Both the position numbers and the translations under genes were made by a program. Of a DNA stretch of 64,000 bases, positions 6,395-47,232 are shown piece after piece. Source of the DNA: Patescibacteria group bacterium (GTDB taxonomy: Bacteria > Patescibacteriota > Microgenomatia > Levybacterales > UBA12049); contig JBBTVD010000020.1 in assembly GCA_038063415.1 (NCBI GenBank), positions 11,629 to 75,628 of the forward strand, in the 5' to 3' direction. Positions within the stretch are counted from its first letter, which is position 1, and every line of letters starts with the position of its first letter. The notes below the pieces were generated by a model. It saw nothing but the letters and a program-made list of their open reading frames with translations, was not told the origin of the DNA and searched no databases.

Positions 6395-7239
6395 ATGATA
6401 TTAAAAGAATTTTTAGCTAAATATTCATCAAGCGAGGCATGTTTGCAGAAGATTATGTCTATACGGTTTGGGTTCAAGCCGTATTGTGGTGAATGCAAAC
6501 GAAGGCGATCATTTAAGAAGATGAAAGATCGTCCAGTATATCAATGCGGTGGTGGTCATCAAGTGAGTCCACTTGCGGGAACTGTGTTTGAGAAGACAAC
6601 AACCCCATTACAATACTGGTTCTATGCAATGTGGCTTATGACTGCTACCCGTGGCGGTATTTCTGCTAAACAACTAGAGCGAGAGCTAGGAGTAACATAC
6701 AAAACCGCATGGAGAATGATGAAGCAAATCCGTATTCTGATGGGTAAAAGAGATGGAAGAAAGCTTAACGGTGTGGTTGAGGTGGACGAATCATTTTTTG
6801 GCGGGAGGGGTACAAATAGAAAATATGTCCCTCATTTCAACGAGAAACCAAAAGATATTATTATGGAATGATTGAAAGAGATGGACAAGTTATCATGAAA
6901 AAGATCGAAACAACTGGAAGACGTGCATTATGGGAACAATTAGAGAGACACGTTGACCCGACTGCCACAGTCATGACTGATCAATATATTGGCTATAAGA
7001 ATATTTACCAAATGGGATACGAGCATCATGCAGTAGATCACGGTAAGACCTATGTTGTCGGCAAGACGCACACAAATAATGTTGAAGGACTTTGGGGACG
7101 GATTAAGCCTGGTATTAAAGGTGTTTATCGCAAGGTCAGTTCAAAATATATTGAAAGCTACATGGATGAGTATTGCTTCCGTTATAACAATCGTAAGACA
7201 CCGAATCAAATGTTTGATTTGTTGTTGACTAAAGTCTAA
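6395..7239 (+). mobile_element. IS1595-family insertion sequence, transposase region; element ends not defined
   Basis: orfA (6395..6871) has the zinc-ribbon/HTH N-terminal part ('CGECKRRRS...CGGGH', 'VEVDESFFGGRGT'). orfB (6868..7239) has the ISXO2-like DDE part ('MIERDGQV...TDQYIGY...HTNNVEGLWGRIK'). Together they correspond to one IS1595-type transposase. Confidence 0.7.
6395..7239 (+). pseudogene. IS1595-family transposase disrupted by a 1-nt frameshift at ~6862-6870
   Basis: The sequence 'atggaatgattgaaagag' would read 'M G M I E R' (the conserved GxxERxG region) if it were 'atgggaatg...'. A single missing G splits the gene into 158-aa and 123-aa ORFs. Confidence 0.55.
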
Positions 7240-7301: not shown

Positions 7302-7571
7302 ATGGCAATTAATCAAATTACTGAAAAAAAAGAAATAATCCCCTCTGAGGGGAAAATATATCTCGAAATAGATAATGGAGACTTGAAAGCTCTTAATCTT
7401 ATAAAAACAATTTTCCGTTTCAAAGATTTTGAAGGTATTCTTCGTTTTGCTTTAGTTATCTTATTGAGAGCAGATAATAATACCATCTATATTGACGAAA
7501 AAGGTAAGAGAGTTAAAATTACGCCTACGGAAGAGGTTACAGAATCAAAAAATGATCCTGAAACTTCTTAA
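7302..7571 (+). CDS. hypothetical small protein (89 aa)
   Basis: ORF only. Confidence 0.3.
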   Translation: MAINQITEKKEIIPSEGKIYLEIDNGDLKALNLIKTIFRFKDFEGILRFALVILLRADNNTIYIDEKGKRVKITPTEEVTESKNDPETS

Positions 7572-7573
7572 TA

Positions 7574-7909
7574 ATGGGACGAACACCAGCAGTAAAAATA
7601 GAAATACCAGAAGAACTTAGAAGTGCAGCAAAAACTGAGGCTGTAGATGCTTTAAGTGAAAAAGTAGATAAATGTTTTTCGGAAGATAGATTTGAGCATT
7701 TTCAGAAAAAAGTTAGGTCAATTGTGCTTGACACAATGGGACATGAAGACGGAATTGCAAAAATCAAAAAATATGGTAAAGAATCAGCAAAGGAATATTC
7801 CGAGGAAAATGGTAAAGAAAAAAGAAACTTCTGGACACCTAATGGTATTTCAATAATCGGGATTTTAGTAGGAATTGTCGCAGTGCTTGTCGCAATCCTT
7901 AAGCCTTAA
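7574..7909 (+). CDS. hypothetical small protein with a C-terminal TM helix (111 aa)
   Basis: ORF with C-terminal 'ISIIGILVGIVAVLVAIL'. Confidence 0.35.
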   Translation: MGRTPAVKIEIPEELRSAAKTEAVDALSEKVDKCFSEDRFEHFQKKVRSIVLDTMGHEDGIAKIKKYGKESAKEYSEENGKEKRNFWTPNGISIIGILVGIVAVLVAILKP

Positions 7910-8619
7910 TTACTTCTTCTTATCAAATGCCTCATGCTTCGTTGACTCTTTTACTAACTTCCCAAATTCTTTTTCGTCAACCTCTGCATTCTCAATCACC
8001 TTGTGTAACTCTTTGTCTTCTGGATGCTCTTGATGTAGTTTCTGTATCTGCTTCAATGTGAGGTTCTTCATGCCTTCATTTTACCACAAACCAACTAGTT
8101 TCATAAGAATAGCTGCACCAATAATTAATGGTGCGATATCGCAGGTTTTTGTATAGAAAATCTTTAGTCCAGTTACTAAAACTGTACTCCATTTTTCAGC
8201 ACGCAATTGCATATATAACTTGTTTAAGTTACAATAACTTTTAGTAAATATCTTCATATGATCTGGGTCGGTTAGCGCCGACCTTTGTCGTTTTAAGTCT
8301 TCATAAATTTCAAGTAAGTACCCCAAATACCAAAAAAGACACCTCACTCGTGGACAAAAATGTCCTAAAGATCGGTGTCCGCATCGTGCTAGTTGCCTAA
8401 GATCGGTACATCTGGCTCAATCTGCTCTCACAGATTAGTTACCATCATTGTATGCTTTTGGGGTGGGAAATACAAGGTAGCTTCTCGTGGCTAGGTGATT
8501 ACGTGGTGTGGGGATATATGCCGGAATAGGAGGTGGATAAAAAGACAAAAAAATAGTATCGAGCACTTATGACGTTTCACTGGGAAACATAATCAGTAAA
8601 TACCGGATACTATTTTTTG

Positions 8620-9009
8620 TTACTTGAGTTCTACTGTAGCACCTGCTGCAGTGAGTTTCTCTTTAGCTTCTTCAGCGGTCTTTTTGTTGACCTGTGTCAA
8701 AACCTCTTTTGGTGCCGCATCAACTAAATCTTTCGCTTCTTTCAGACCCAATGTTGGGGCGAGTTCACGAAGAGCTTTAATAACTGCGATTTTTTGTGCA
8801 CCTGCTGATGCAATAACAACGTTGAAGACTGTCTGTTCTTCTTTTGGTTCTTCATCTACTGCTGCACCGACTGCGGGAGCTGCTGCTACCATAGTTGCTG
8901 CTGCTGAAACACCAAATTTTTCTTCGAGAGCTTTCACCAATTCTGAAAGTTCAAGAACGGACATTTCTTCGATTGCTTGCATTAATTCTTCTTTTGTCAA
9001 TTTTGCCAT
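8620..9009 (-). CDS. rplL: 50S ribosomal protein L7/L12
   Basis: '[34 protein letters not shown]...[13 protein letters not shown]' is the canonical L7/L12. Confidence 0.95.
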
Positions 9010-9024
9010 AAACTTTCACCCCCT

Positions 9025-9567
9025 TTACGCTTTTTTATCTTTGATTGCGTTTAGTGTCAAAACAAGTTGTTGTAAATTCCAATTAAGTGCGCGGTGTAAA
9101 CCTGAGATAGGTGCTTTCATTTGTCCAAGTAATTGTGCCCGCAGGACTGGCAATGGGGCAATTTGTGAAAGTTTTACTACTTGTTGGTCAGAAATAATGG
9201 TATTTTCCAGAACACCAAATTTAATAACAGGAAGTTTTAATTCCTTGATCGTTTTTGCAAGTAACTTAAGTGGTGCAACAACGTCGTTGTATAAAAAGAT
9301 CGTTCCAGTTGGTTGCTTAAGTTTTGCTTTATCTTCGTCAGATAGGCCTTTTTCTGCAAGTGCGCGGAGTAACAGGGTATTTTTTGTTGCAACATATTCA
9401 GCATCGTTTGCTTTCATTGCCTTTTTGACACCTTCAATTTGTTGATGCGTAAGCCCTGTATAGTTAGTAAAAACAATCGCTTTCGCTTTTGCTACTTTTT
9501 CAAGAAATTTTTCAACAAGAACTTCCTTTTTTTGTCTATTTTGACTGGTAATTGTGTAACTATCCAT
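9025..9567 (-). CDS. rplJ: 50S ribosomal protein L10
   Basis: A 180-aa L10-like sequence immediately upstream of rplL on the same strand. Confidence 0.9.
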   Translation of the reverse strand: MDSYTITSQNRQKKEVLVEKFLEKVAKAKAIVFTNYTGLTHQQIEGVKKAMKANDAEYVATKNTLLLRALAEKGLSDEDKAKLKQPTGTIFLYNDVVAPLKLLAKTIKELKLPVIKFGVLENTIISDQQVVKLSQIAPLPVLRAQLLGQMKAPISGLHRALNWNLQQLVLTLNAIKDKKA

Positions 9568-9670
9568 AATTTTTAACGCTCATAACGAATTTTTTCTTGC
9601 TCTCAACGCGATCAGTACTTTATTTTTACTAGCTTCTCTTACTCGCTTTCCTTCTTATTCTATCCAAGAA

Positions 9671-9696
9671 ACAAAAAAACGCTCTCAAGGAGCGTT
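9671..9696 (-). terminator. rho-independent terminator-like hairpin (stem aacgctc/gagcgtt, 5-nt loop, then a U-run on the minus strand)
   Basis: Plus-strand sequence 'acaaaaaaacgctctcaaggagcgtt'. On the minus strand the hairpin is followed by 7 T. It lies between the IS481 copy and rplJ, in the L10 leader region. Confidence 0.5.
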
Positions 9697-9818
9697 ATAA
9701 ACACTTTCAGATGTCTGAAAGTAACATGTCGTGCTCCTCGGTAGGACTTATCAATGCCTACTTTCTTTGGATACAACTATTATAGCAGTGAATAGGTTAC
9801 CTGTCAAGAAAATGTCCT

Positions 9819-10880
9819 GGTTGCCTAGATAGAGAACGGTTGTCCTCCTTTCTTTTCTTGCAGGATAATAACACATTCAGCAGGAGTTTTGTAACCTAAC
9901 GAACGATGAAACCGTTGAGTATTATACTTTGTATTAAATGCCATACACCGCTCATTGATCATGTCCAATTCATCTAAAAGGTCTGTTTGGTAATTGAAGT
10001 ATTCGTACTCTGCTGTCTGGTGTAGCCGCTCAACTCGTCCGTTTTGTTTCGGACAGTGAGGGTTAGTAAAGTAGTGGGGAATGCCCCAATCTACAAGCTC
10101 TTTATGGAAGTTCAGCAAATATTCACTGCCATTGTCAGTATTCACAGCGTGGATTGGAAACGGGAAATACTCCCGTACTCGTCTGAGAAAATCTTGGCCT
10201 GAGGCACTTGAAATGGTCTTGTAACAATACAAAAAGCCATACCTAGATTTGCAATCTATCGCTGTGAACAGATAAAACTTTTTTGTTAACACATATAAAT
10301 ATTTTGTGTCTACCTGCACCAATGAACCAAGTGCTCTTTCTCGTAACTCTACGCTTGCTTTCACCCGTGCAATCGCATAATTCCTGTGTTTCTTCATCCG
10401 TTTCTTGTGTTGCATATTCTGAAGCTCTGCATGCCGATTAATCACTTTTTGGATACTTGTTTGCCCAACCTTCACACCTTCTCGCCTTAACTCTTCCTGG
10501 ATCTCGTATTTGCTCTTCTCTGGATCTGCTTTTCGAATCGCAACCACTCGCTGTTGTACCCACAGAGGTGTGGTCATCTCTCGTACCCTTTTCGGTCGTC
10601 TCGTTTTGCTATCAAACTCAAGGCTTTGCAAGTTCCTCTTGTCAAAACGGTTCTTCCATCGGTAAAACACACTCTTGGATAAACTAAAATGTCTGCACGT
10701 CGCTTCTGCATTCTTCCCATGTCCGTAGTACCAATCTATCCATTGCAGTCGCTTCAGGGCTTCCTTTGAAAGTGACGCTACCCTTATCTCTTCGGTCGGT
10801 AAAATGTTGTAGTGACGCATGACCGCGTCAGTATATCTCTTGCTCAACCTAGCTTCAACCGTTCTCTATGTATCGCAACC
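9819..10880 (-). mobile_element. IS481-family insertion sequence (~1.06 kb) with imperfect ~24-bp terminal inverted repeats
   Basis: Left end 'ggttgcctagatagagaacggttg' (9819-9842) matches the reverse complement of the right end (10856-10880, 'caaccgttctctatgtatcgcaacc'). The enclosed gene has an intact DDE integrase core. Confidence 0.7.
9825..10847 (-). CDS. IS481-family transposase (HTH plus rve/DDE integrase core), apparently intact, 340 aa
   Basis: Motifs 'VQVDTKYL', 'NTDNGSEY' and 'NPHCPKQNGRVERLHQT' are typical of the IS481/IS3 superfamily integrase core. Confidence 0.8.
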   Translation of the reverse strand: MSKRYTDAVMRHYNILPTEEIRVASLSKEALKRLQWIDWYYGHGKNAEATCRHFSLSKSVFYRWKNRFDKRNLQSLEFDSKTRRPKRVREMTTPLWVQQRVVAIRKADPEKSKYEIQEELRREGVKVGQTSIQKVINRHAELQNMQHKKRMKKHRNYAIARVKASVELRERALGSLVQVDTKYLYVLTKKFYLFTAIDCKSRYGFLYCYKTISSASGQDFLRRVREYFPFPIHAVNTDNGSEYLLNFHKELVDWGIPHYFTNPHCPKQNGRVERLHQTAEYEYFNYQTDLLDELDMINERCMAFNTKYNTQRFHRSLGYKTPAECVIILQEKKGGQPFSI

Positions 10881-10912
10881 TAGACAAGAATTATTACGGA
10901 GATCTTTTCTGA

Positions 10913-12004
10913 CTAGTAAGTAATGACAAGTTCAGGTTGATTTTTGAAGCTATCTCTTGATGCAAAGTCTAGTCCGTTATTGCCAGAAGATTCAAATGCT
11001 AAAGAGACAATATTTCCAGCGTTCTCTTTTACAAATTTGGTAAGGTCAATTTCTTTCCATGTATTTATCTTTCCTCCAGTAATAGATGTGATGGTAGCTG
11101 AGGTAGCAGGTCTGTTTTTGTACGTCAAGGTAGATTCTTGCCAATTTGTGTTTTTTACTTCCTTAAGCGATTGTTTTGAGTCTGAGCCATTTACCACGTA
11201 TAATCTAAGTTTTGCTGTATTAATACGCATGTTTTTGAATACCTTAAGATCAAATTTCATATAAATGATCTTATTATTGTCCTGATCAACTTCAAGCGTT
11301 TTTGCTTTGCCATAGCTCGTACTTGTCTTATCATTTCTCACAAACGTATCAGCTATTGGTTTAATAGAGAAGCTTCCTGTTGCAATCAGTGGCGTCGGGG
11401 TAGCGGATGGAATTGTTATTTTAGTAGGTGTTGGCAGATTGCTTGGTTTGATCGTTGGTAAAAAAGGTGTCGGCGTTATGGCAGATGGAGCGATAGTATT
11501 TGTGGGTTGAATGGTAGCGGTAGCTACAGAAGTAGGGGTTATAGGGGCTGTTGTGCAATTTTGACCGAGATTAAGCGGAATACAGGTAAGATCTTGAGTA
11601 AAGACTAGTTTATCAATTTTTACTCCTGGTTTGTTGCCGATAAGGGTAATCAGATGTGCTCCTTGGGTTAATTGTATGGTTGTTGGAATATTTAACCATG
11701 TCCAAACATTTGTTGGCATATCTTGTTTATCTCCAATGAGCATCCCGCACTTATTATCTATCTGAAGCCAGTAGGAATTATTTATGGTATCTGGGATCAT
11801 TATCCTGCTCCAAATGTTGTAGGTGCCTGAAGCCGTAATGTCTGTTGGTATTGTCACACTTCCGGTGTTCGTAGGTAGACTAGGGCAGGAGTTTGTTGGT
11901 ATTGATGTTTGAGCGTTTGCTTGTCCAACAATCCCCATCCCGAGCAAAAATATAACAGCAAAAAGCAAATTTTTGGTTAGAATAGTATCTGTTTTTTTAT
12001 GCAT
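10913..12004 (-). CDS. secreted/membrane-anchored protein with a Thr/Pro-rich linker and a C-terminal ~110-aa module shared with the 4552..6366 protein
   Basis: N-terminal signal/anchor 'LLFAVIFLLGMGIVGQANA'. Linker 'PTPFLPTIKPSNLPTPTKITIPSATPTP'. C-terminus 'AKLRLYVVNGSDSKQSLKEVKNTNWQES...NTWKEIDLTKFVKENAG' aligns with residues ~110-215 of the beta-helix protein. Confidence 0.5.
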   Translation of the reverse strand: MHKKTDTILTKNLLFAVIFLLGMGIVGQANAQTSIPTNSCPSLPTNTGSVTIPTDITASGTYNIWSRIMIPDTINNSYWLQIDNKCGMLIGDKQDMPTNVWTWLNIPTTIQLTQGAHLITLIGNKPGVKIDKLVFTQDLTCIPLNLGQNCTTAPITPTSVATATIQPTNTIAPSAITPTPFLPTIKPSNLPTPTKITIPSATPTPLIATGSFSIKPIADTFVRNDKTSTSYGKAKTLEVDQDNNKIIYMKFDLKVFKNMRINTAKLRLYVVNGSDSKQSLKEVKNTNWQESTLTYKNRPATSATITSITGGKINTWKEIDLTKFVKENAGNIVSLAFESSGNNGLDFASRDSFKNQPELVITY

Positions 12005-12010
12005 ATGGTA

Positions 12011-13132
12011 TTAGTTTATGTATCCTGGTGATAGATAACTTGTTCCATTCCAAAGCGAAGCTGGTACAAAATCCCCACCAGGAGGTGTCGCCCCCTGAAA
12101 AAGACCTGCACTCGGCCAAGAACCAAAGGAATCAGTGGAGTTAAACTTCGCACCAATTGTATAGACGCGATCGCTCGTCATTTTTGTTAGACTAGGTTCA
12201 CGGTCGGCCAAGAGATATTTTGCTCCACCAAGTCGATCATCTCCCTCCAGATTCACGCGTCGAGTAACCCAGGGTTCTCCACTACCACTGGGGACTGACC
12301 GTCCATCGGCTGGATCCAAATAGAAACCTTGGTATGTTGCGTGCTTGGCAGTGAGTCCATCAATGAGTAATGTTCTTGGACCACCCCATGCCTGGATGAC
12401 ATCAGCATGAACGGTGGCTTGTGTACCATAATTAATGGCATCAACACGGACATTCTGCACAATAGCGGTGGTACCATTGTTTGTACGGATTGCAAATTGA
12501 ATAGCATCAGATAAATACGTACCAGGCTTAAACCACAAACCTTCAAGAAATACGATGCGAACATCGGAACCATCAGAAATGCGAATCCCTCTATTTGGAC
12601 TATCATAGGAGCCAGAGGGAACGTTGGTTCGTCCACCAAAGGTGCCTCCAATCCATACGATATTTCGACCTCCGACCAGCGTTACTGGTCCGGTAATGGC
12701 GTTTGGCGCAAGAATTTGGTAATCGGTACCGTTAGTAAGATTTAAGGTGCCTCCTGTTGTTGGCACGGTGACTTTGGTATAATTCTCATATCCTACTGGA
12801 GGAGCCCATGAGAGTTTCTCTCCTGAGGTTGATGGCGTTTGTGTCAGACTCGGAGCAGTACTTGGTATGGATGTCGGTTGAATTCCTCCAAATTGGATAT
12901 ACTTGCCCCCTGATGCATTCTCGTCATTCCCGACAGCGATTTGAGCATTTGTTCCACCTGCTTCAGCTTCAATTTCAGCGAGGGAAAAAGCTGATGCGCT
13001 TAAATTGGTCTGTTTGTTTTGGTAGATAACAAAAACGGGTACAGAGAGAACCAGCAAGGTCAAAAAACCGGCGAGTAAAAGCTTCTTATCAATGAAAAAA
13101 CGATGGAATTTTTTTGTCTGTAAATGCATCAT
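12011..13132 (-). CDS. secreted/membrane-anchored hypothetical protein (373 aa)
   Basis: N-terminal TM 'LLLAGFLTLLVLSVPVFVIY'. No recognised catalytic motif. Confidence 0.4.
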   Translation of the reverse strand: MMHLQTKKFHRFFIDKKLLLAGFLTLLVLSVPVFVIYQNKQTNLSASAFSLAEIEAEAGGTNAQIAVGNDENASGGKYIQFGGIQPTSIPSTAPSLTQTPSTSGEKLSWAPPVGYENYTKVTVPTTGGTLNLTNGTDYQILAPNAITGPVTLVGGRNIVWIGGTFGGRTNVPSGSYDSPNRGIRISDGSDVRIVFLEGLWFKPGTYLSDAIQFAIRTNNGTTAIVQNVRVDAINYGTQATVHADVIQAWGGPRTLLIDGLTAKHATYQGFYLDPADGRSVPSGSGEPWVTRRVNLEGDDRLGGAKYLLADREPSLTKMTSDRVYTIGAKFNSTDSFGSWPSAGLFQGATPPGGDFVPASLWNGTSYLSPGYIN

Positions 13133-13139
13133 GTAATCG

Positions 13140-14648
13140 TTATTGTGTTTGTGTAAAGGTTATATCATCAACCCAAACAGTTCCTGCTTCAAGCCCTGCT
13201 TGAAATCCGACAAATACATTGTTTTGCGTATCTGATGCGGTAAACGTATACGTAAAATCTTGCCATTCAGGGGTAAGATCAAATGTCTTTCTATCGTAGA
13301 CAGTGAATGGACGGACAGATTGTTGGACAACGACGTCTATTTTTCGGTTAGCTGCGGCTTTTGCAGAAAATCCTACCATATACGTCTTTCCAGTAGTGAT
13401 CGCTAAACCATATTGGGCGATCTCTACATCCCAAGGATTTTGTGCGGCTTGTGCTATTTCAATTTTGGCTGCATTTGATCCATCTTCTTGCGCTTCGGTG
13501 GTAACACTGAAATTGCCGCTGGCACCGGCTCTTTGGTTAAATTGCCAATCAGACGTACCATCTTCAAACGATGCATTTTTAAGGGCACCAGTATTTCCTC
13601 CAAGAAAGTGAGCAAAGAGTTCTTTGAGCAGTTCCAGAAGACGTATAAGTAATCCCTTAAGTTCTTCGTCGCTTAGATAATCAGTATTACTATCAGTATT
13701 TGGTGTCCCCGTAATTGATGGCTGCATGTCTGTTGGGTCGGCTGTTGTCCCACTGGGAGATGCAAGTATCTCAGTTGATGGTTCTGCGCTAGGTTGCTGA
13801 GAAATAGCTTCTGTTATGGATGGCCCACTAGACGGTTCTGCCGATGGTTCAGCAGAAGGTGGTTGTGTCGATGCTTGAGGCACATCACACGCTATTGGCT
13901 TGCAGCCCTTACCAAGGGTATCTTGGAAGCATACGGCACCACTTCCACAATCAGCATCAACACTGCATGGTTTGGAACAAATAGTTGCATCGGTAAACTC
14001 AGCCGCACAAATAAATGCTTCCTTTCCAGCGCATTCACCGCCACCTTTGGTGCAGTATTTCCCAACCCCTTTTTCATTACCAGCATCACCAGGGGCTCCA
14101 CATCCTTGAACTGGTCCCTGGCTAATGACCGTAGATGGGGCAACCGATAGTTGTTGTGTATCTGAAGGTTCAGGATTTGTGTCACATGGTGTCGTAGAAG
14201 GTTCAGGATTATTGTTGTCGCCACCATTGTCGTTATTATTTCCTTCACTACCAAGTAATATCTTGATCAACTCTTCAAGAAATTTAAAGATTAATTCAAT
14301 CAATTTCCCAATAAAGCCATTTTCTGTTTTTCTTTCCCAACGTTCTTGCTGACCATCAGGGGTTGGCTGGTTACGTGTGACAGAAACAGGAGCAGCTTGT
14401 GTTGTTATACAAGGGTTAGTTGTTATGCTGGCAGCTTGTTCACTACTTGGAGATGCCTCTGCTGGGGAAAGGGATTCAGTAATATCCGCCACTGCTTGTT
14501 CCTTGACAACAGTTGGGCAGGTATTGCCAAGACAAAAAAATTGATCAGTAGGACTTACTTCAAGAGCTTTACTCTGTGATGTGAATGGTAGCACAAGGAA
14601 GAACGAAACGAGGAAAAAGATAAAACTGATGAATAGCTTAGAACGCAT
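13140..14648 (-). CDS. secreted Cys-rich protein with a C-terminal CBM4/9-like carbohydrate-binding module
   Basis: Signal/anchor 'LFISFIFFLVSFFLVL', a Cys-rich central region, and C-terminal 'LKNASFEDGTSDWQFNQRAG...AKIEIAQAAQNPWDVEIAQYGLAITTGKTYMVGFSAKAAANRKI...TVWVDDITF'. The C-terminal part is paralogous to the N-terminal module of 22373..24544. Confidence 0.55.
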   Translation of the reverse strand: MRSKLFISFIFFLVSFFLVLPFTSQSKALEVSPTDQFFCLGNTCPTVVKEQAVADITESLSPAEASPSSEQAASITTNPCITTQAAPVSVTRNQPTPDGQQERWERKTENGFIGKLIELIFKFLEELIKILLGSEGNNNDNGGDNNNPEPSTTPCDTNPEPSDTQQLSVAPSTVISQGPVQGCGAPGDAGNEKGVGKYCTKGGGECAGKEAFICAAEFTDATICSKPCSVDADCGSGAVCFQDTLGKGCKPIACDVPQASTQPPSAEPSAEPSSGPSITEAISQQPSAEPSTEILASPSGTTADPTDMQPSITGTPNTDSNTDYLSDEELKGLLIRLLELLKELFAHFLGGNTGALKNASFEDGTSDWQFNQRAGASGNFSVTTEAQEDGSNAAKIEIAQAAQNPWDVEIAQYGLAITTGKTYMVGFSAKAAANRKIDVVVQQSVRPFTVYDRKTFDLTPEWQDFTYTFTASDTQNNVFVGFQAGLEAGTVWVDDITFTQTQ

Positions 14649-14708
14649 AGTGCAAAAAATAATGGTCTACTATACTTAAGCAGAAAAGTTAGAAGGTTGT
14701 CAATATGC

Positions 14709-15524
14709 TTAGAGGGAGGTAATATCAAGGGTAACCGCTGGACTCATGGTAGATTTTATCGTCACTGTTTTAATGTTTTTTGTTTGGACTGCCTGCACAA
14801 AAGCCTTAACGTTTTCCTGTAGCTTCTTTTCACCAAATGACGCTTTACCAACAGTAAAGTGAAGAATAGGGAATTTAGCTTCTGTTTTGTAATGCATTTG
14901 TCCTCCGGCAAACTTTTTGGCTGCTTCATCTGGCTTTTGAGTAACGGTACCATTTTTTGGATTTGGCATAAGACCACGAGGGCCAAGCACTTTTGCTACC
15001 CGTGCAAGTTTTGGCATAGTGTCCGGGGTTGCGATAAGGACATCAAAGTTAATTTGTCCAGCTTCAATTGCTTTGACCAGCTCTTCAACTTTTTTGGCAT
15101 CAACTGTTTGGTTTGCAATTTCGACACGGATCGTTTTGCCAGTTCCATGTGGAAGCACAACTGCTCCTGAAATACCTTTTTCAACAGTATTGATGTGGAG
15201 TTCAACGGTTTCATCAAACTTTGCTCGTTGCAATTTGGATAAGAGAGACAATGATTCAGTCAGTGAATATTTTTTGTCTTTGTCAACGTATGCAGCAGCT
15301 GTTGTATAGCTTTTTGAGTGAGACTTTGTTTGTCCAACTTTTTTTTGTTGCTTCTTAACGGCTGGTTTTTCTGCAACTGCTTCTTTTACTTCACCATTTT
15401 TTTCTTCTTCAGAAGCATCAGCTGTTTTTTGTGCACGTTTTGCTTCGGCACGTTTTTTAGCCTTGAGTTGTTCGTCTTTTTCTTGTTGTTCGTCTCCGAT
15501 TGTTTTTACTCTAATTTTTCCCAT
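14709..15524 (-). CDS. rplA: 50S ribosomal protein L1 with a ~70-aa Lys/Glu-rich N-terminal extension
   Basis: L1 core 'GKTIRVEIAN...LGPRGLMPNPKNGTVT...' lies directly downstream of rplK. The N-terminus is K/E-rich low complexity. Confidence 0.9.
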   Translation of the reverse strand: MGKIRVKTIGDEQQEKDEQLKAKKRAEAKRAQKTADASEEEKNGEVKEAVAEKPAVKKQQKKVGQTKSHSKSYTTAAAYVDKDKKYSLTESLSLLSKLQRAKFDETVELHINTVEKGISGAVVLPHGTGKTIRVEIANQTVDAKKVEELVKAIEAGQINFDVLIATPDTMPKLARVAKVLGPRGLMPNPKNGTVTQKPDEAAKKFAGGQMHYKTEAKFPILHFTVGKASFGEKKLQENVKAFVQAVQTKNIKTVTIKSTMSPAVTLDITSL

Positions 15525-15528
15525 ATAA

Positions 15529-15948
15529 TTATTCTACTGCTACACCCATAGACCGAGCGGTTCCAGCAACTACACGAGTTGCCATTGCAACGTCATCAGT
15601 GTTTAAGTCTTCAAGCTTATCTTTTGCGATTTGTTCTGCTTGTGCCATTGTGAGCGTTGCAACTTTTTCACGGCCTGGTTTTTGGCTACCAGCTTTGCCG
15701 ATAACTTTTTTAATCATTTCAGCAACTGGTGGCTTCTTGGTAATAAAGGTAAAGGTACGATCTTCATAGACAGTAATAACAACGGGAAGGACGTTGCCTT
15801 TCATGTCGGAAGTCTTGTCATTGAATGCTTTGACAAACTCCATGATCGGCAGACCATGTTGTCCAAGAGCCGGTCCAACAGGTGGTGCTGGGGTTGCAGC
15901 TCCTGCAGGAATCGTTAATTTAATGATTGTTTTTACTTTCTTTGCCAT
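15529..15948 (-). CDS. rplK: 50S ribosomal protein L11
   Basis: '[34 protein letters not shown]' is the canonical L11. Confidence 0.95.
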
Positions 15949-15952
15949 AGGT

Positions 15953-16552
15953 TTAGAGTTTTTGTACTTGCAAAAAATCTAATTCGACAGGAGTTTCACG
16001 ACCAAAGATAGAAACGAGTACTTTCAGCTTCCCGTGTGCTTCGTCAATCGTATCAATCGTTCCCAGGAATTCACTGAATGGACCATCGATGATCTTCACA
16101 GCTTCACCCATAGAGAACGATACTTTATACATCGGCTCATCAGTATTCATAAACTGTTGAATTGCTTCAACTTCTTTTTCTGAGATTGGGGTTGGTTTGT
16201 TTCCTGCACCTATAAATGAAGTAACACCCTGGGTACTTCTGACCATAAACCAGGTTTCGTCATCAAGTACCATCTTCACAAGCACATATCCTGGAAAGAT
16301 CTTTTCTTTAACGGTTTCTTTTTTGCCTTGAGAAACTTTGATGGTATTGCGAGTTGGAACGATGATGTCAAAGATTCGGTCATCAAACTTCATTGCTTCA
16401 GCACGTTGTTTGAGTGAACGAGCGACTTTGTTTTCGTGACCAGCATAGGTATGAATGATGTACCATTTGCCTGCACTTGAATCTATTGCTGGCTTATCTG
16501 CGAGCACATCTTCTGCTTCTGTTTTTTGTACTGCTTCAGTTGGTTGATCCAT
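15953..16552 (-). CDS. nusG: transcription termination/antitermination factor NusG
   Basis: NGN domain '[15 protein letters not shown]' plus C-terminal KOW '[25 protein letters not shown]'. Gene order is secE-nusG-rplK. Confidence 0.9.
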
Positions 16553-16560
16553 AATTTTGA

Positions 16561-16752
16561 TTATTTAAGTAACATTTCTTGAATCTTTACAAAAATAAAG
16601 TCCAAGGCGCCGATATATAAACCGACAAAAACACTTATGGTAAGGACAATGATCGTTAATCTAAAGACATCCTGCTTACTTGGCCAGACAACTTGCTTAA
16701 GCTCGTCGTAGGTTTGCTGTAAAAAGGTGACCGGCTTTGTCATTACGAACAA
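16561..16752 (-). CDS. secE: preprotein translocase subunit SecE
   Basis: 63-aa single-TM protein 'WPSKQDVFRLTIIVLTISVFVGLYIGALDFIF' immediately upstream of nusG. Confidence 0.85.
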   Translation of the reverse strand: MFVMTKPVTFLQQTYDELKQVVWPSKQDVFRLTIIVLTISVFVGLYIGALDFIFVKIQEMLLK

Positions 16753-40381: not shown

Positions 40382-41134
40382 ATGGCACGACCAGAAGGAA
40401 ATCCTATTGAAGGTTTAAGAAAGCTTATTCACGCAGCTTTTATGGAAGTAGTTCGTTCTTTTGCAGGGATTCTTGCATCTCTAAAAGTGCAAAAGAGGAA
40501 ACGCAGGATGTTCGTTATTTCTAGTAGTATAGGATTTGGCATTACCTATATATTATTTCTTCTTACCTATGGAATTCTCCCCCAATTTGATCGAACAAAT
40601 GTAAGACTGCCTGTATTCTGCGAAGGGACTCAAGGCGACCTTACGATACCTTCTCGATTGAGATATGCATTGCCTAATGGAGAGATTGGTATATTGATAA
40701 AGAGTAACGCTGAAACTGCTGTTGTAGCCACTATTGATACAAGTAATCCATCTGATGCAAGCACGGTCTTTGTGGTAAGCAAAGATGGCAATAAAATGCT
40801 GAGAACGATGCATTTTGAGAACGATGTTATTAGTGCCGCTATCGATGAGGGAATTGTTTACATTTTCAATGACAAGTTAGGGTATCTTCTGGACGAACAT
40901 ACTGGCGAGGATGAAAAAACATTTCTTAAAATAGATAACTATGGTGGTCTTTCCCAATCTAATAACCCCATTCTTCCATTTGGTTCTGATGGTTATTGGT
41001 ATATGGAAACGACTGGTATCATCTCAAGTTGGCATATTGATGGGAAAGTCAAATCACGACCTCGTTTGGTGTTTAATGGCATTGCGCGAGGTTGTTTTAT
41101 ATCAGGTGAGACTGGTCAGGTTATTAACCTCTGA
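40382..41134 (+). CDS. membrane protein with a C-terminal soluble domain (paralogue A, 250 aa)
   Basis: TM 'FVISSSIGFGITYILFLLTYGIL'. From 'NGEIGILIKSNAET' onward it is identical to 44454..45266. The N-terminal ~100 aa are only ~65% identical. Confidence 0.5.
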   Translation: MARPEGNPIEGLRKLIHAAFMEVVRSFAGILASLKVQKRKRRMFVISSSIGFGITYILFLLTYGILPQFDRTNVRLPVFCEGTQGDLTIPSRLRYALPNGEIGILIKSNAETAVVATIDTSNPSDASTVFVVSKDGNKMLRTMHFENDVISAAIDEGIVYIFNDKLGYLLDEHTGEDEKTFLKIDNYGGLSQSNNPILPFGSDGYWYMETTGIISSWHIDGKVKSRPRLVFNGIARGCFISGETGQVINL

Positions 41135-41192
41135 GAAGTAATTATGCATTCACTTGAAAAGCCCATAGTTTTATGATAAGATTTACGACTCT

Positions 41193-42548
41193 ATGGCGAG
41201 AGTAGATCATGAATCAGGAAGAACCAGTGTACTCGATCTAAATCGAGCAAAAGCAGTTGGATTCTTGGATTATAACTTGAGAGGACAAAGACATAAAACT
41301 TCAGTCATGCATGATTGGCGTGATTTTTTGGCAAGTGGAAGGACCGGAGGTTATCTTGAATTACCTACAGGCGCAGATAAGACCATTGTAGCTGAATTTG
41401 TGGCACTTGGTCTGAAGACAATTGTTACCTCATCAACAAGAGAGACCTTAGATGAAACGAAAGCAACAATTGAGAGTCATGCAGGGGGGATTGAGGTAAC
41501 TAATTATGATGGCCGCCTAACAGGTGTAAGAGGAAATGTCATCAACACAACATTACCTTCCCTTGAAACATTATCAGATATTCCAGCGGTTGCAAAAGGA
41601 GTAGAATTGATCATTGTTGATGATGATACATTGGGAAGACAACGCCAGGAACTGTGGCGGAGATTTCCAAATGCGCTTTTTGTAGGACTTACCACTACAT
41701 CGGATTTTTCTCAACGTGATCAATTAGAACGCAGAGGGACGGTAGATCCGGGTGAACGTTGGACGGGAATGTTTAAAAATCGTATTCATAGGCTTAGCAG
41801 AGAGGAATTAGTGACAAAAGCTAAAATAGGAGAAAGAATAGCAGCAGCAACTGACCTTCCATCAATAAATAATGTCCTTGATGATATGGTAATAATGGTA
41901 CGCAAACGTAATCAAGCAGGATCAGTTTTAGATTTTTATAGAATGATGGCAGAACTCCTTCCAGACACGCTTCGTCTAGATAAACAAGAAATACTTTTAG
42001 AAGGAATAAGTAATACGAATGTTGATCAACAAAAAATGGGAAAAAAAGCCTTGTTGTTCCTTAATCTGAGATCTGTCTTTACCGTAGTACAACCGCATTT
42101 TTCTGCTGATGAAGAGACAAATGTAGAGATCTTGCAAACAGCATTATTGCAATGTTATGAGAAAATGAAAAATAAAAAAACAACTCCGCAACAAATATTA
42201 AGGGAAGGGGCGACTGCTTCATTGGTAAGAAAGCAAAGAGAGATGCAGGAGGTAATCGTCTATCGGGATACGAGAGAGCCCGATAGGGAAGATGGAAGAC
42301 AAGCTGATCTTATGAGCGCTGTTGAGGAGAGGGCTATGATTGCTTCTGTTTTAGGAGAACTTTCTGAAAGAGAAAGAAAAGTGATAGAATTACGTTTTGG
42401 GATTGGAACTAATGATTGGAGAGAACAAACTCTGGAGGAAGTCGGTCATGTAGTTGGTGTATCAGGGAGAAGAATTAGCGTAATTGAGACAAAAACATTA
42501 AGTAAGTTACGAGACACGAGATTAAGGAAGTTTCTCGATGATTTATGA
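41193..42548 (+). CDS. fusion protein: degenerate SF2-helicase/ResIII-like N-terminal domain plus C-terminal sigma-70 region-4 HTH (451 aa)
   Basis: N-terminal 'GYLELPTGADKTIVAEFVA' resembles a Walker A/motif I with Gly-to-Ala/Asp substitutions. 'ELIIVDDD' sits in the DExH position. C-terminal 'LSERERKVIELRFGIGTNDWREQTLEEVGHVVGVSGRRISVIETKTLSKLR' is a classic sigma-70 region 4. Sigma regions 2 and 3 are not evident. Confidence 0.5.
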   Translation: MARVDHESGRTSVLDLNRAKAVGFLDYNLRGQRHKTSVMHDWRDFLASGRTGGYLELPTGADKTIVAEFVALGLKTIVTSSTRETLDETKATIESHAGGIEVTNYDGRLTGVRGNVINTTLPSLETLSDIPAVAKGVELIIVDDDTLGRQRQELWRRFPNALFVGLTTTSDFSQRDQLERRGTVDPGERWTGMFKNRIHRLSREELVTKAKIGERIAAATDLPSINNVLDDMVIMVRKRNQAGSVLDFYRMMAELLPDTLRLDKQEILLEGISNTNVDQQKMGKKALLFLNLRSVFTVVQPHFSADEETNVEILQTALLQCYEKMKNKKTTPQQILREGATASLVRKQREMQEVIVYRDTREPDREDGRQADLMSAVEERAMIASVLGELSERERKVIELRFGIGTNDWREQTLEEVGHVVGVSGRRISVIETKTLSKLRDTRLRKFLDDL

Positions 42549-42643
42549 TAGTACAAAGGTTTGAGTCTGTCTACCGTGAGCCATATTTAGCTCATATTAT
42601 ATCAAGAAAGTCTTTATACAACTCTACTGATTTCTGCTAAAAT

Positions 42644-42955
42644 ATGGCAATGAGTCAAAAGTTGAGTTTCAAACCATCGGATATTGAAAAAGTATATAAA
42701 GATCAGGCCAAAAGATATTCAGGCTTTGCTAATGATTCTTTCAGTTGGCTTTATCTTGAAAAGCCATGGGGCACAACATCACCGCTATTTTTGAGACCAG
42801 TTGCTGATATTGTAAATGAAACAATAAAAGCGGGTTTTACTATAAAGTCATTAGAAGAACCCTCTGTTCCATTGGCAGCAAAAAAAGCAGACCATGTGAA
42901 TTATTTGAAGTATTCTTTTTGCCCATCACGAATTGCTGTCATTGCCACAAAATAA
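42644..42955 (+). CDS. small hypothetical protein (103 aa), possibly a remnant of a methyltransferase C-terminus
   Basis: ORF with a weak resemblance to the C-terminal beta strands of class I methyltransferases. Low confidence. Confidence 0.25.
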   Translation: MAMSQKLSFKPSDIEKVYKDQAKRYSGFANDSFSWLYLEKPWGTTSPLFLRPVADIVNETIKAGFTIKSLEEPSVPLAAKKADHVNYLKYSFCPSRIAVIATK

Positions 42956-43053
42956 AAATGATGAATCAACCACAAAGCTTGTTGGTGCAACGTAGGGGGC
43001 TAAGGAGTTTTGTTGCAATGATCCAAATGCTCATGAGAAGAGTATATCATTAA

Positions 43054-43100
43054 GTTAGAATTTTTTACGCACAGAATCAGGAGTTTAAATTCCAAGCTTT
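43054..43100. repeat. motif-1 copy b (upstream of the Fic gene)
   Basis: 'GTTAGAATTTTTTACGCACAGAATCAGGAGTTTAAATTCCAAGCTTT'. Confidence 0.6.
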
Positions 43101-43198
43101 ATATGAATTACTTTAGGGATGGTGTTAAATGTTAAAATGGCAATTGTTAAATGTTCGATAGTGTGATATTCTCTTTTTAGCTTCAAATTTAGCTAAAT

Positions 43199-44371
43199 AT
43201 GTTAAATATTGAAAATAAAATGAGTAAGTATTCATACGACAAATTATTACTAGTACAGCCCAAATTTAACTCTACTTTGACAGATTTAATTATTGAGTTA
43301 GATTATTTAAGGAAAAAGCCTTTAGGTGGTAGCACTCCACCTCGGATATTTTTCCAATTAAAAAGTATATTTCATACCTTAGAAAGTATTGGGTCTGCAC
43401 GTATTGAAGGAAATCATACGACTATTGCTGAGTTTATTGAAACGAAGTTAGAGAAACATAAGAGTAAAGACGAAAAAATAAATGAAATTCAAAATATAGA
43501 AGCAGCAATGGATTTTATTGATAATTCTATAGATGCAACACCTATAAATGACGCTTTCATACGTGAGTTACATAAGAGAGTTGTGGGTGGTTTATCTCCT
43601 CATGAAGAAGGAGATACTCATCCTGGTGAATATCGAAAAGGAAATATTAAAATTGCTGGTACACAACATGTACCCCCAGAATCTCTGCAAGTCATTGATT
43701 ATATGCAGGAGTTAAATGGATTTATTAATAATGACGATCCACATAAATATGATCTGCTTAAAATTGCATTAGCACATCATCGTTTTGTATGGATTCACCC
43801 CTTTGGAAATGGTAATGGTCGTACTGTTAGATTACTTACCTACGCACAACTTATAAAGTCAGGTTTTAATGTTCACGTAGGAAGAATTATTAACCCTACT
43901 GCAATTTTTTGTAGCGATCGAGAGAAATATTATTCGTATTTATCGAAAGCAGATGCAGGGGATAGTACTGGCCTCTTAAATTGGAGTGAGTATGTGTTAT
44001 CTGGATTGAAACAGGAGATAGAAAAAATTGACCATTTGTTAGATTATAGTTATTTATCTGAAAAAATATTACTTCCTGCCATTAGTTTCTCACTTGATAG
44101 AAAAGTTATTACTCAGCTTGAGGCGGATATTTTAAAAATTGCGGTTAAAAAACAATTATTTCAAGCATCAGACTTAAAAGAACTATTTCCCAACACAATT
44201 CCGGCTCAAGTTTCTCGTTATATCAGTCGTTTGAAAGAAAAAAAGATGATTGCTCCGGAAAATAAAAATAGTAGAAAGTACCTTATAGATTTTGGTAATA
44301 ATTACTTACTTCGGGGTGTTATTAAAATGTTAGATCAACATGGTTTTTTACCTCTTAAAGGAGAGTCTTAA
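43199..44371 (+). CDS. Fic family protein, class II (N-terminal inhibitory helix), with a C-terminal winged-helix-like domain (390 aa)
   Basis: Fic motif 'HPFGNGNGRTVRLL', in which Asn occupies the usual D/E position. An inhibitory-helix motif (S/T)xxxE(G/N) is present as 'SARIEGN'. Confidence 0.75.
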   Translation: MLNIENKMSKYSYDKLLLVQPKFNSTLTDLIIELDYLRKKPLGGSTPPRIFFQLKSIFHTLESIGSARIEGNHTTIAEFIETKLEKHKSKDEKINEIQNIEAAMDFIDNSIDATPINDAFIRELHKRVVGGLSPHEEGDTHPGEYRKGNIKIAGTQHVPPESLQVIDYMQELNGFINNDDPHKYDLLKIALAHHRFVWIHPFGNGNGRTVRLLTYAQLIKSGFNVHVGRIINPTAIFCSDREKYYSYLSKADAGDSTGLLNWSEYVLSGLKQEIEKIDHLLDYSYLSEKILLPAISFSLDRKVITQLEADILKIAVKKQLFQASDLKELFPNTIPAQVSRYISRLKEKKMIAPENKNSRKYLIDFGNNYLLRGVIKMLDQHGFLPLKGES

Positions 44372-44453: not shown

Positions 44454-45266
44454 ATGACGCCTTTACAAATAGGACTTGGTACCAGTATATTTATCAATCT
44501 AATAATTGGGCTACTCTATATCGCTATCCTACAAGAGCCAGGTTCAGCATATTATTTTTTTCTCTTTCTTACTTTCTTCAGCGGTTCCTTTCTTGCAGGA
44601 ATTCTTGCATCTCTAAAAGCGCAAAAAAGGAAACGCAGGGAGTTCGTTGTTTCTAGTAGTATAGGGTTTGGCATTACCTGTATGTTATTTCTTATTACCT
44701 ATGGAGTTCTTCCCCAATTTGATCGAACAAATGTTAGATTACCTGTATTCTGCGAAGGAAATCAAGGCGACCTTAAGATACCTTTTCAATTGAGATACAC
44801 TTTACCCAATGGAGAGATTGGTATATTGATAAAGAGTAACGCTGAAACTGCTGTTGTAGCCACTATTGATACAAGTAATCCATCTGATGCAAGCACGGTC
44901 TTTGTGGTAAGCAAAGATGGCAATAAAATGCTGAGAACGATGCATTTTGAGAACGATGTTATTAGTGCCGCTATCGATGAGGGAATTGTTTACATTTTCA
45001 ATGACAAGTTAGGGTATCTTCTGGACGAACATACTGGCGAGGATGAAAAAACATTTCTTAAAATAGATAACTATGGTGGTCTTTCCCAATCTAATAACCC
45101 CATTCTTCCATTTGGTTCTGATGGTTATTGGTATATGGAAACGACTGGTATCATCTCAAGTTGGCATATTGATGGGAAAGTCAAATCACGACCTCGTTTG
45201 GTGTTTAATGGCATTGCGCGAGGTTGTTTTATATCAGGTGAGACTGGTCAGGTTATTAACCTCTGA
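44454..45266 (+). CDS. membrane protein paralogue B (270 aa); N-terminus diverged from 40382..41134, remainder identical
   Basis: See 40382..41134. Confidence 0.5.
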   Translation: MTPLQIGLGTSIFINLIIGLLYIAILQEPGSAYYFFLFLTFFSGSFLAGILASLKAQKRKRREFVVSSSIGFGITCMLFLITYGVLPQFDRTNVRLPVFCEGNQGDLKIPFQLRYTLPNGEIGILIKSNAETAVVATIDTSNPSDASTVFVVSKDGNKMLRTMHFENDVISAAIDEGIVYIFNDKLGYLLDEHTGEDEKTFLKIDNYGGLSQSNNPILPFGSDGYWYMETTGIISSWHIDGKVKSRPRLVFNGIARGCFISGETGQVINL

Positions 45267-45324
45267 GAAGTAATTATGCATTCACTTGAAAAGCCCATAG
45301 TTTTATGATAAGATTTACGACTCT

Positions 45325-46680: not shown

Positions 46681-46775
46681 TAGTACAAAGGTTTGAGTCT
46701 GTCTACCGTGAGCCATATTTAGCTCATATTATATCAAGAAAGTCTTTATACAACTCTACTGATTTCTGCTAAAAT

Positions 46776-47087
46776 ATGGCAATGAGTCAAAAGTTGAGTT
46801 TCAAACCATCGGATATTGAAAAAGTATATAAAGATCAGGCCAAAAGATATTCAGGCTTTGCTAATGATTCTTTCAGTTGGCTTTATCTTGAAAAGCCATG
46901 GGGCACAACATCACCGCTATTTTTGAGACCAGTTGCTGATATTGTAAATGAAACAATAAAAGCGGGTTTTACTATAAAGTCATTAGAAGAACCCTCTGTT
47001 CCATTGGCAGCAAAAAAAGCAGACCATGTGAATTATTTGAAGTATTCTTTTTGCCCATCACGAATTGCTGTCATTGCCACAAAATAA
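46776..47087 (+). CDS. small hypothetical protein, second identical copy
   Basis: Identical to 42644..42955. Confidence 0.25.
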   Translation: MAMSQKLSFKPSDIEKVYKDQAKRYSGFANDSFSWLYLEKPWGTTSPLFLRPVADIVNETIKAGFTIKSLEEPSVPLAAKKADHVNYLKYSFCPSRIAVIATK

Positions 47088-47185
47088 AAATGATGAATCA
47101 ACCACAAAGCTTGTTGGTGCAACGTAGGGGGCTAAGGAGTTTTGTTGCAATGATCCAAATGCTCATGAGAAGAGTATATCATTAA

Positions 47186-47232
47186 GTTAGAATTTTTTAC
47201 GCACAGAATCAGGAGTTTAAATTCCAAGCTTT
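47186..47232. repeat. motif-1 copy c (duplicate of copy b inside unit 2)
   Basis: Offset 4132 from copy b. Confidence 0.6.

Follow-up and report, generated by a model that had tools for sequence, protein, structure and literature searches.

Two questions are raised by a 64,000-nt stretch of DNA (referred to below as the window) from a groundwater Candidatus Levybacteria genome of the candidate phyla radiation (CPR/Patescibacteria): why are the genes for ribosomal proteins L11 and L1 parted from those for L10 and L7/L12, and why does an insertion sequence (IS) stand just upstream of the latter? The canonical adjacency of rplK-rplA and rplJ-rplL is absent from the window. The final gene of a conserved secE-nusG-rplK-rplA module, rplA, is separated from rplJ by 5,141 bp, which hold three genes on the same strand (cargo genes 1, 2 and 3) and an IS481-like element. 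The module containing rpmG and tRNA-Trp, canonically located upstream of secE, is found about 36 kb away from it, and the canonical rplL-rpoB-rpoC linkage is absent as well. A first-pass annotation of this DNA had described these features and had offered two explanations for them, an unusually permissive organization of the locus in this lineage or a recent rearrangement mediated by insertion sequences. We consider it probable that three things together account for the locus, namely an old modular split of the ribosomal cluster, an autonomous rplJL unit, and a later, separate insertion of the IS next to a promoter. The split by itself is ordinary; the part that is worth follow-up is the IS lineage, which targets sigma-70 promoters and inserts 5 bp upstream of their -35 hexamers.

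We compared the gene order of the locus with that of related genomes, which were collected by an L10 scan of species-representative genomes and by look-ups of L10 homologues. This yielded 11 informative Levybacteria loci, 65-75% identical over five concatenated proteins. rplA and rplJ are separated in ten of the 11, by 2.6, 7.5, 2.4, 4.0, 6.1, 9.5, 7.8, 5.6, 5.2 and 2.2 kb. The sole contiguous genome is L008 (RIFCSPLOWO2_02_FULL_37_18), with a distance of 0.35 kb; in a rough neighbor-joining tree of NusG, L11, L1, L10 and L12 it forms a basal Levybacteria branch, and the split genomes are its sister clade. The other breaks are shared, too. Neither rpmG nor tRNA-Trp was found upstream of secE in the relatives, in up to 10 kb looked at, and rpoB does not follow rplL in any of the ten relatives with downstream sequence (the L044 sequence ends in rplL). 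The three cargo genes and the IS of the window are absent from all 11 relatives, and a search allowing up to 7 mismatches detected no decayed IS ends in them. Since IS-free relatives share the split and only the basal L008 is contiguous, the parsimonious reading is that the separation of rplA from rplJ would be ancestral in Levybacteria and not caused by the IS. The first-pass annotation had allowed that the same split across the whole clade would make it ancestral rather than recent, and this is what the comparison of gene order revealed. Its suggestion of a permissive organization is borne out, rpmG and rpoB being unlinked in addition to the split itself, and its suggestion that an IS recently caused the split fails on the IS-free relatives that carry the same split without any remnants of IS ends.

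The view that a recent IS-mediated rearrangement split a contiguous rplKAJL here and moved rpmG/tRNA-Trp and rpoB away is therefore very unlikely, although several features of the window speak for it. Toward rplJ the gap holds an intact IS481-like element, and remains of an IS1595 element are found downstream of rplL. No matching target duplication flanks the IS481-like copy, a typical sign of deletion or recombination associated with an IS (PMC11708052). However, the same three breaks occur in relatives that have neither an IS nor remnant ends. An NTP-transferase gene and/or glmS lies upstream of secE in the window and in the relatives with sequence there, and the synteny of PAP2, NTP-transferase, glmS and secE is conserved. 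The 36 kb between tRNA-Trp and secE are filled with ordinary chromosomal genes (guaA, PAP2, glycoside hydrolase, MFS, GNAT). The only plausible remainder of this explanation is a local IS-associated deletion on the left side of the element.

The comparison suggests that the ribosomal super-cluster is modular in Levybacteria, with variable slots at every module boundary. The classical cluster (tRNA, rpmG, tRNA-Trp, secE-nusG-rplKA, rplJL, rpoBC) would long ago have been broken into modules at the boundaries of transcription units, and the slot between rplA and rplJ would be an old permissive site that takes up lineage-specific cargo, mostly glycan-binding proteins that are secreted or anchored in the membrane. 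Save for two sister pairs (L004/L044 and L005/L045), no two genomes have related cargo. In the relatives it includes glycosyltransferases, a GH1 glucosidase and a polysaccharide lyase, as well as surface-type proteins with fn3, CARDB, Big and DUF11 domains. When open reading frames (ORFs) of at least 100 aa are compared by a hydropathy heuristic, an N-terminal hydrophobic segment is predicted in 25 of 42 from the cargo but in only 24 of 159 encoded elsewhere in these loci (Fisher test, p=2.6e-8). A second variable slot is located between rplL and a small HTH_17/MerR gene, which recurs downstream of rplL in seven relatives and in the window, sometimes after one or a few variable genes. Because no decayed IS ends were found in the 11 relatives, there is no direct support for the IS having built the island in other lineages. 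Our searches of the literature returned nothing relevant on gene order in Levybacteria.

The IS481-like insertion at rplJ would then be a later event, separate from the split, and its position is explained by the habits of its lineage. We conducted a census of insertions by searching metagenome contigs for an exact 25-nt motif from the right end of the element. The 48 loci obtained, together with the window and L050, yielded 36 non-identical right flanks no shorter than 45 nt. No conservation is seen at +1 to +5, counted from the terminal ...ACA. Positions +6 to +11, in contrast, form a -35 hexamer (T34 T34 G35 A29 C27 A22 of 36), and positions +29 to +34 form a -10 box at a 17-nt spacer (T23 A26 A22 A22 A23 T25 of 36). 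TTG occupies +6 to +8 in 33 of the 36 flanks against a background of 2.3% per position in distal flanks (p=4e-51), and TTGAC starts at +6 in 25 of 36 against a background of 0.15%. In 28 of 36 flanks the hexamer is followed by TANNNT at a distance of 16-18 nt; of the remaining TTGAC sites in these loci, 9.8% have it (p=7e-22). The targeted hexamers vary (TTGACA, TTGCAA, TTGAAA, TTGATC, TTGTAA, GTGACT), and the sites also differ in spacer, -10 box and downstream gene; the genes behind the target promoters include rpoB, rpsB, rpmF, greA, thrS and those for an M16 peptidase, an AAA ATPase and a methyltransferase. The orientation is fixed: the right, transposase-distal end always faces the promoter, and the transposase gene is co-directional with it. 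Insertion is thus oriented and takes place at a fixed 5-bp distance from a defined motif, which is the -35 box and not an XerCD recombination site (xrs). The copy in the window follows the same rule at the rplJ promoter (TTTTC|TTGACA). We found no report of -35-box targeting by any IS in the open-access literature searched.

Target duplications show where the element stops. In four full-length copies (L050, L070, L081 and L098) the five base pairs at +1 to +5 are perfectly duplicated, with the sequences TTCAT, GCTGA, CATGA and CTCGT. As the duplication begins right after ...ACA, this is the terminus of the element, and the hexamer is host DNA. Behind many target promoters the start codon comes as early as 5-13 nt past the -10 box, at +39 to +47 when counted from the end of the IS, which suggests that leaderless mRNAs are common in these genomes, which are probably of CPR origin.

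Placement next to promoters could in principle reflect purifying selection on random insertions, with no choice of target by the transposase. CPR genomes are compact, so that most random insertions would be harmful, and every site that we observe is by necessity a survivor. Selection alone, however, cannot produce phasing to the single base, with TTG exactly at +6 to +8 in 33 of 36 flanks, nor hold the element to one orientation with respect to the promoter. It also cannot explain why no insertions are seen elsewhere in intergenic DNA, such as past terminators or farther upstream of promoters. We regard selection as the whole explanation to be just as improbable as the recent rearrangement. 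Promoter targeting by the element itself would constitute a safe-haven strategy in a gene-dense genome. As a tentative and, on balance, improbable extension, this CPR lineage of IS481-related transposases may recognize active sigma-70 promoters, through the DNA of the -35 box or through bound RNA polymerase/sigma, inserting 5 bp upstream in one orientation; by repeated docking at strong promoters such as those of rplJ, rpoB, rpsB and rpmF, followed by adjacent deletions or recombination, it could create and turn over variable islands upstream of promoters in Levybacteria.

Since the lineage integrates just upstream of -35 hexamers, the IS lies 5 nt from the strongest consensus promoter of the region and leaves both this promoter and the leader unharmed. 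The right end of the element is 246 bp upstream of the rplJ start codon and 5 nt upstream of the -35 hexamer. The first-pass annotation had placed it about 250 bp upstream of rplJ, which agrees with this distance, and in the L10 leader, which does not hold, as the leader match begins downstream of the -35 hexamer. The rplJ promoter and leader are undamaged because the IS sits upstream of the -35 box and not in the leader. Apart from the IS, the spacer left between the CBM96 gene (cargo gene 3) and the promoter amounts to 26+5 nt. The -35 hexamer and TGnTATAAT of the rplJ promoter can be aligned with those of the 11 IS-free Levybacteria loci. In the resulting 12-locus alignment conservation upstream of rplJ starts exactly at the -35 hexamer, which takes the forms TTGACA, TTTACA, TTGCCA and TTGAAA, and the TGnTATAAT, the leader core UCCAAAGACAGUAGG...UAAGUCCUACCGAGG and the terminator are conserved in all loci.

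The leader is positioned between the promoter and rplJ and carries a mimic of the L10 site and an attenuator terminator. It matches the full span of the Rfam L10 leader model RF00557 with 34.6 bits (E=4.3e-4 in a 401-nt search), which is below the gathering score of 44; the homologous leader of the basal relative L008 reaches 58.4 bits and is the only one among the relatives to pass. A scan of the whole window at Rfam gathering thresholds reports four tRNAs alone, and the L10 leader is seen only in the permissive local search. The likeness to RF00557 consists in the stem-loop of the L10 site and, after it, an intrinsic terminator that competes with a helix upstream; the difference lies in the lower score, and the function of the leader in the window is a prediction. 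The stem-loop mimicking the L10 site is conserved (CCAAAGA.AGUAGG...CCUACCGAGG), the fold of the leader has a z-score of -4.9, and a CGAGGAGC/GCUCCUUG helix is predicted to compete with the terminator. By analogy with the L10 leader mechanism of Bacillus and E. coli, L10(L12)4 would feed back on rplJL through the switch between antiterminator and terminator, and such autoregulation would likewise be expected for the rplJL of the window. A long hairpin after rplL looks like the terminator of this unit. rplJL would therewith be self-contained, having its own sigma-70 promoter, leader switch and terminator, and the DNA upstream would be irrelevant to it. Because the unit of promoter and leader is autonomous in all 12 loci, unrelated DNA or an IS is tolerated just upstream. 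The proposal of the first-pass annotation that the IS could affect L10/L12 autoregulation finds no support, as promoter, leader core and the terminator/antiterminator elements all lie downstream of the IS and can be aligned with those of IS-free relatives.

An assembly artefact, whether a contig put in the wrong bin or a chimera joined across repeats of the 1-kb IS, has a slimmer chance still than the two alternatives discussed so far. It is suggested by the short-read Logan contigs, which break inside the conserved inverted repeats at both ends of the IS, and by the absence of a target duplication around the copy in the window; the breaks indicate that other variants of the IS are present in the community. 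On the other hand, single-run Logan contigs reproduce the arrangement with 100% identity (16022->12713, 15515->10858, 12206->9825, 9854->8773). Two independent contigs join rplA to the cargo genes, one spanning rplK-rplA-cargo1-cargo2 (L100) and the other running from rplA through cargo genes 1, 2 and 3 to 29 nt inside the IS (L099). Two more (L041, L042) lead from cargo gene 3 through the IS up to the transposase stop codon, and another two (L002, L003) from the right end of the IS into rplJ-rplL. In addition, the whole IS together with both of its flanks is contained in one ENA contig at 99.89% identity; its 14 single-nucleotide mismatches to the window identify it as a separate assembly. 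The 331-aa form of the transposase (ATG start) is on record and its exact sequence is known solely from this rplJ context; the 340-aa form (TTG start) has no database record. No IS-free allele of the rplJ locus was found in the contig look-ups. A chimeric join is unlikely, and rplA is in any case followed by cargo and not by rplJ.

The least probable alternative is that TTGACA is carried by the IS itself and that rplJL is driven by a hybrid, IS-borne promoter: TTGAC does stand 5 nt beyond the conserved ...ACA in most copies, and outward-facing -35 boxes are common in the right ends of copy-out-paste-in insertion sequences (bioRxiv 10.1101/2022.12.17.520857), but the five bases in between show no conservation and in four copies recur at the left end, which sets the end of the element at ...ACA, the hexamer varies as natural -35 boxes do, unrelated spacers, site-specific -10 boxes and different genes follow it, and in the IS-free relatives, too, a -35 box occupies the corresponding position upstream of rplJ.

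Several points weigh against an ancestral split followed by a promoter-targeted insertion next to an autonomous rplJL unit. The neighbor-joining tree is rough and without bootstrap, and a single ancestral split is its parsimonious reading, not a proven one. The census sampled a single IS lineage, as it used one exact 25-nt motif. Survivorship, that is, the loss of harmful insertions, contributes to the set of observed sites, although the exact 5-nt phasing goes beyond what it could achieve. The match of the leader in the window falls under the Rfam gathering score. Secretion of the cargo products was called by a crude hydropathy heuristic, and co-transcription of the cargo with rplKA is read from spacing and from the lack of a predicted terminator, while a candidate promoter exists in the spacer. 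Finally, nine of the 13 full-length copies with a readable right flank, the window copy among them, have no matching duplication (window, L054, L065, L069, L071, L076, L077, L084, L091), which is unexpected for simple insertions; all of these but L054 obey the -35 rule.

The copies that lack a duplication may in part be explained by chimeric joins across repeated IS copies in metagenome contigs. IS-adjacent deletion or recombination as a route to missing duplications is documented for insertion sequences generally (PMC11708052), and such copies have also been noted for elements of the IS1202 family (Siguier et al., bioRxiv 10.1101/2022.12.17.520857). In the window the flanks are AATTCT on the left (10887-10892) and TTTTC on the right (9808-9812) and do not match. 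We attempted to obtain a duplication of 4, 5 or 6 bp by shifting the IS ends; only TTCT is common to both flanks, and it is out of register. Because the window copy has no matching duplication and the assembly is well supported there, a later adjacent deletion or a recombination between IS copies on the left has probably taken away some DNA that lay between the promoter and cargo gene 3. A deletion of this kind would affect the content of the cargo and not the split itself.

The assignment of the element is based on its transposase and its termini. The best family model for the transposase is IS481 (NF033577), with 186.9 bits over model positions 1-283 of 284, below the curated cut-off of 224; the second-best model is IS3 (92 bits), and ISNCY_2 reaches only 27.7 bits (cut-off 250). 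The nearest plasmid-borne relatives of the transposase are annotated as IS481 family and are at most 32% identical. We fixed the ends of the element by comparison with a copy in another genome, whose protein is 77% identical, and with a dozen more full-length ones; other full-length copies of the lineage measure 1,066-1,076 bp. The left inverted repeat begins at 10886 (TGTCTAGG...) and the right one ends at 9813 (...CCAGGACA). The repeats are imperfect and roughly 30 nt long, and the 17-nt core of their arms is 94% complementary. The TGT...ACA termini and the length of about 1-1.3 kb that characterize the IS481 family are found in this element. No second copy of the IS ends is present in the window.

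All three cargo products have a hydrophobic N-terminus, and that of cargo gene 3 is signal-like according to the hydropathy heuristic. This agrees with the first-pass description of three secreted or anchored protein genes in the gap; the same description counted one carbohydrate-binding module (CBM), and we find such a module in two of the three products (CBM_4_9 and CBM96). The product of cargo gene 2 has no match in Pfam or NCBIfam. Its family comprises 59 homologues, none of them named, with CPR and Nanopelagicales entries among them. An AlphaFold2 model shows an all-beta C-terminal domain of about 265 aa, with a predicted local distance difference test (pLDDT) score above 90 over residues ~110-373. 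When this model was compared with the PDB by Foldseek, parallel beta-helix polysaccharide lyases came out on top, with a best E of 0.16, which is not significant. The earlier characterization of the cargo as beta-helix-related thus stays a mere hint, the 373-aa model being confident and its structural matches being non-significant. The gaps between rplA, cargo gene 1, cargo gene 2 and cargo gene 3 are 60, 7 and 6 nt, and a terminator scan predicted no terminator in the 60-nt spacer between rplA and cargo gene 1, which holds a candidate promoter (TTGACA-18-TTAAGT). Because the gaps are short, the genes lie on the same strand and no terminator is predicted, the three cargo genes are probably read through from the secE-nusG-rplKA unit, or else transcribed from the weak promoter in the spacer.

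Coordinates of the features are given in Table 1. Genes were called from a listing of ORFs together with Pfam and NCBIfam profile scans, and tRNAs with ARAGORN and Rfam.

Table 1. Genes, elements and signals identified in the window (positions count from its first nucleotide).
Feature	Position	Strand	Evidence or remark
604-aa protein, CBM96 and right-handed beta-helix	4552-6366	minus	Pfam CBM96, Beta_helix, NosD
IS1595-family transposase, frameshifted into two overlapping ORFs	6395-7239	plus	NF033547 positions 2-77 and 101-215; Pfam DDE_Tnp_IS1595
Long hairpin with T-run (TTTTTTT) after rplL	8548-8618		putative rplJL terminator
rplL (L7/L12)	8620-9009	minus	Pfam Ribosomal_L12 and Ribosomal_L12_N
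rplJ (L10)	9025-9567	minus	Pfam Ribosomal_L10, E=6.3e-19
L10 leader, L10/L12-binding stem-loop, then antiterminator and terminator (predicted)	9664-9788	minus	RF00557
Leader terminator hairpin with T-run	9678-9696	minus	terminator scan
rplJ promoter, TTGACA-17-TATAAT, TG before -10	9779-9807	minus	12/12 consensus positions
IS481-like element, 1,074 bp	9813-10886	minus	inverted repeats and comparison with other copies
Transposase ORF	9825-10847 (TTG start, 340 aa) or 9825-10820 (ATG start, 331 aa)	minus	Pfam rve, rve_3, HTH_28, HTH_32
Cargo gene 3, 363 aa, secreted, Pro/Thr linker, C-terminal CBM96 (DNRLRE)	10913-12004	minus	Pfam CBM96 E=4.3e-34; NCBIfam DNRLRE_dom
Cargo gene 2, 373 aa, N-terminally anchored, uncharacterized family	12011-13132	minus	
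Cargo gene 1, 502 aa, secreted/anchored, Cys-rich middle, C-terminal CBM_4_9	13140-14648	minus	Pfam E=1.7e-14
rplA (L1)	14709-15524	minus	Pfam Ribosomal_L1, E=3.5e-35; TIGR01169 176 bits, cut-off 216
rplK (L11)	15529-15948	minus	Pfam Ribosomal_L11_N and Ribosomal_L11
nusG	15953-16552	minus	Pfam NusG, E=3.6e-30
secE	16561-16752	minus	Pfam SecE, E=3.7e-16
tRNA-Trp	52548-52620	minus	ARAGORN and Rfam
rpmG	52704-52880	minus	TIGR01023 and NF001764, both above cut-off
tRNA-Thr, tRNA-Tyr, tRNA-Thr, rpmG, tRNA-Trp module	52548-53184	minus	ARAGORN and Rfam

The gene order set out in the first-pass annotation is confirmed except for the placement of the IS in the leader and the count of binding modules. 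The ORFs and Pfam matches agree that the secE-rplA block ends at 14709, that rplJ starts at 9567 and that cargo and IS lie in between; ARAGORN, Rfam and NCBIfam matches agree on rpmG and tRNA-Trp at 52.5-52.9 kb; and there is no rpoB-sized ORF after rplL within the window, as had been stated.

Downstream of rplL the window contains an insertion of about 2.3 kb between this gene and the next conserved one, of which the IS1595 remnant and two small ORFs (7302-7909) are part. The 604-aa protein is the first conserved neighbor downstream of rplJL. According to a tblastn search, a homologue 54% identical to it is encoded directly after rplL in L046, followed by the HTH_17/MerR gene.

Other properties of the region were noted in passing. 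The L1 protein encoded by rplA has an N-terminal extension of about 70 aa, rich in Lys, Glu and Ala, whose length is conserved across the Levybacteria loci L004-L049 (proteins of 268-303 aa). The spacing of nusG and rplK is 4 nt in the window, and several relatives have a spacer of 150-450 nt or an extra ORF of 86-88 aa at this position (L048 3094-3360 and L049 6252-6512; also L004, L006, L008, L009 and L044). Elsewhere in the window, ~40680-44280 and ~44810-48410 form a tandem duplication of about 3.6 kb with 100% identity and a period of 4,132 bp. Each duplicate encodes a 451-aa sigma-70 region 4 protein, a 103-aa ORF and a 390-aa Fic-domain protein; this could be either a genuine recent duplication or an assembly artefact.

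The split itself is of little import, since breaks at operon boundaries have precedents, this one appears to be ancestral with no sign of a recent rearrangement or an assembly fault, and the regulation of rplJL seems undisturbed. The slot between rplA and rplJ is of more interest as a clade-wide island with fast turnover beside highly expressed genes, and it bears on the diversification of the surface in reduced, probably host-attached CPR cells. Insertion next to -35 boxes, if confirmed, would represent a new mode of target selection for DDE transposases. An IS that seeks -35 boxes would also naturally mark genuine promoters in uncultured bacteria, where many of the marked promoters seem to drive leaderless genes, and could serve as a starting point for promoter-proximal insertion tools.

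Separation of the L11 and L10 operons is known from other bacteria. In Mycobacterium tuberculosis several genes lie between rplA and rplJ, and also between rplL and rpoB. rplKA is separated from rplJL in Bradyrhizobium diazoefficiens and Actinomyces israelii (PMC12993453). These cases resemble the window in that the break is located at the boundary of the L11 and L10 operons, each part retains a promoter and leader of its own, and the slot is filled with unrelated genes. They differ in that the slot in Levybacteria is filled in ten of 11 sampled members of a class-level CPR clade, with rapid turnover and enrichment in secreted products, and in that rpmG/tRNA-Trp and rpoB are unlinked as well.

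Classical members of the IS481 family prefer NCTAGN-type targets. The element of the window shares with this family a single rve transposase with an N-terminal HTH, a length of about 1 kb, TGT...ACA ends and short inverted repeats, and four related copies have a target duplication within the known range. That range is 2-15 bp, with 6 bp in most cases (PMC10045372), as opposed to 5 bp here. Further differences are the score of the transposase below the curated cut-off (186.9 versus 224 bits) and its low identity to annotated plasmid-borne transposases.

In its behavior the lineage comes closest to the ISAba32 elements, a subgroup within the IS1202 family for which XerCD recombination sites serve as targets (Siguier et al., bioRxiv 10.1101/2022.12.17.520857). 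Both have a DDE transposase related to IS481/IS3, oriented insertion, a 5-bp duplication and an end located 5 bp from a protein-binding site; in both, copies without duplication occur and a safe-haven rationale has been proposed. In the lineage described here, however, the target is the -35 hexamer and not xrs/dif, and the end abutting it is the transposase-distal right end rather than the left inverted repeat. The transposase is of an IS481-like type of ~335 aa and not of the larger IS1202 type, and the element of the window is therefore no member of that group.

Safe havens of this kind have precedents in other systems, such as Tn7, which inserts at attTn7 downstream of glmS, and the yeast element Ty3, which inserts at Pol III start sites. 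They share with the lineage of the window a precise, oriented insertion beside a conserved signal of gene expression that spares the genes themselves, and they differ in their enzymes and hosts. If the IS does recognize promoters via the transcription machinery, it would be a bacterial counterpart of Ty3-style targeting.

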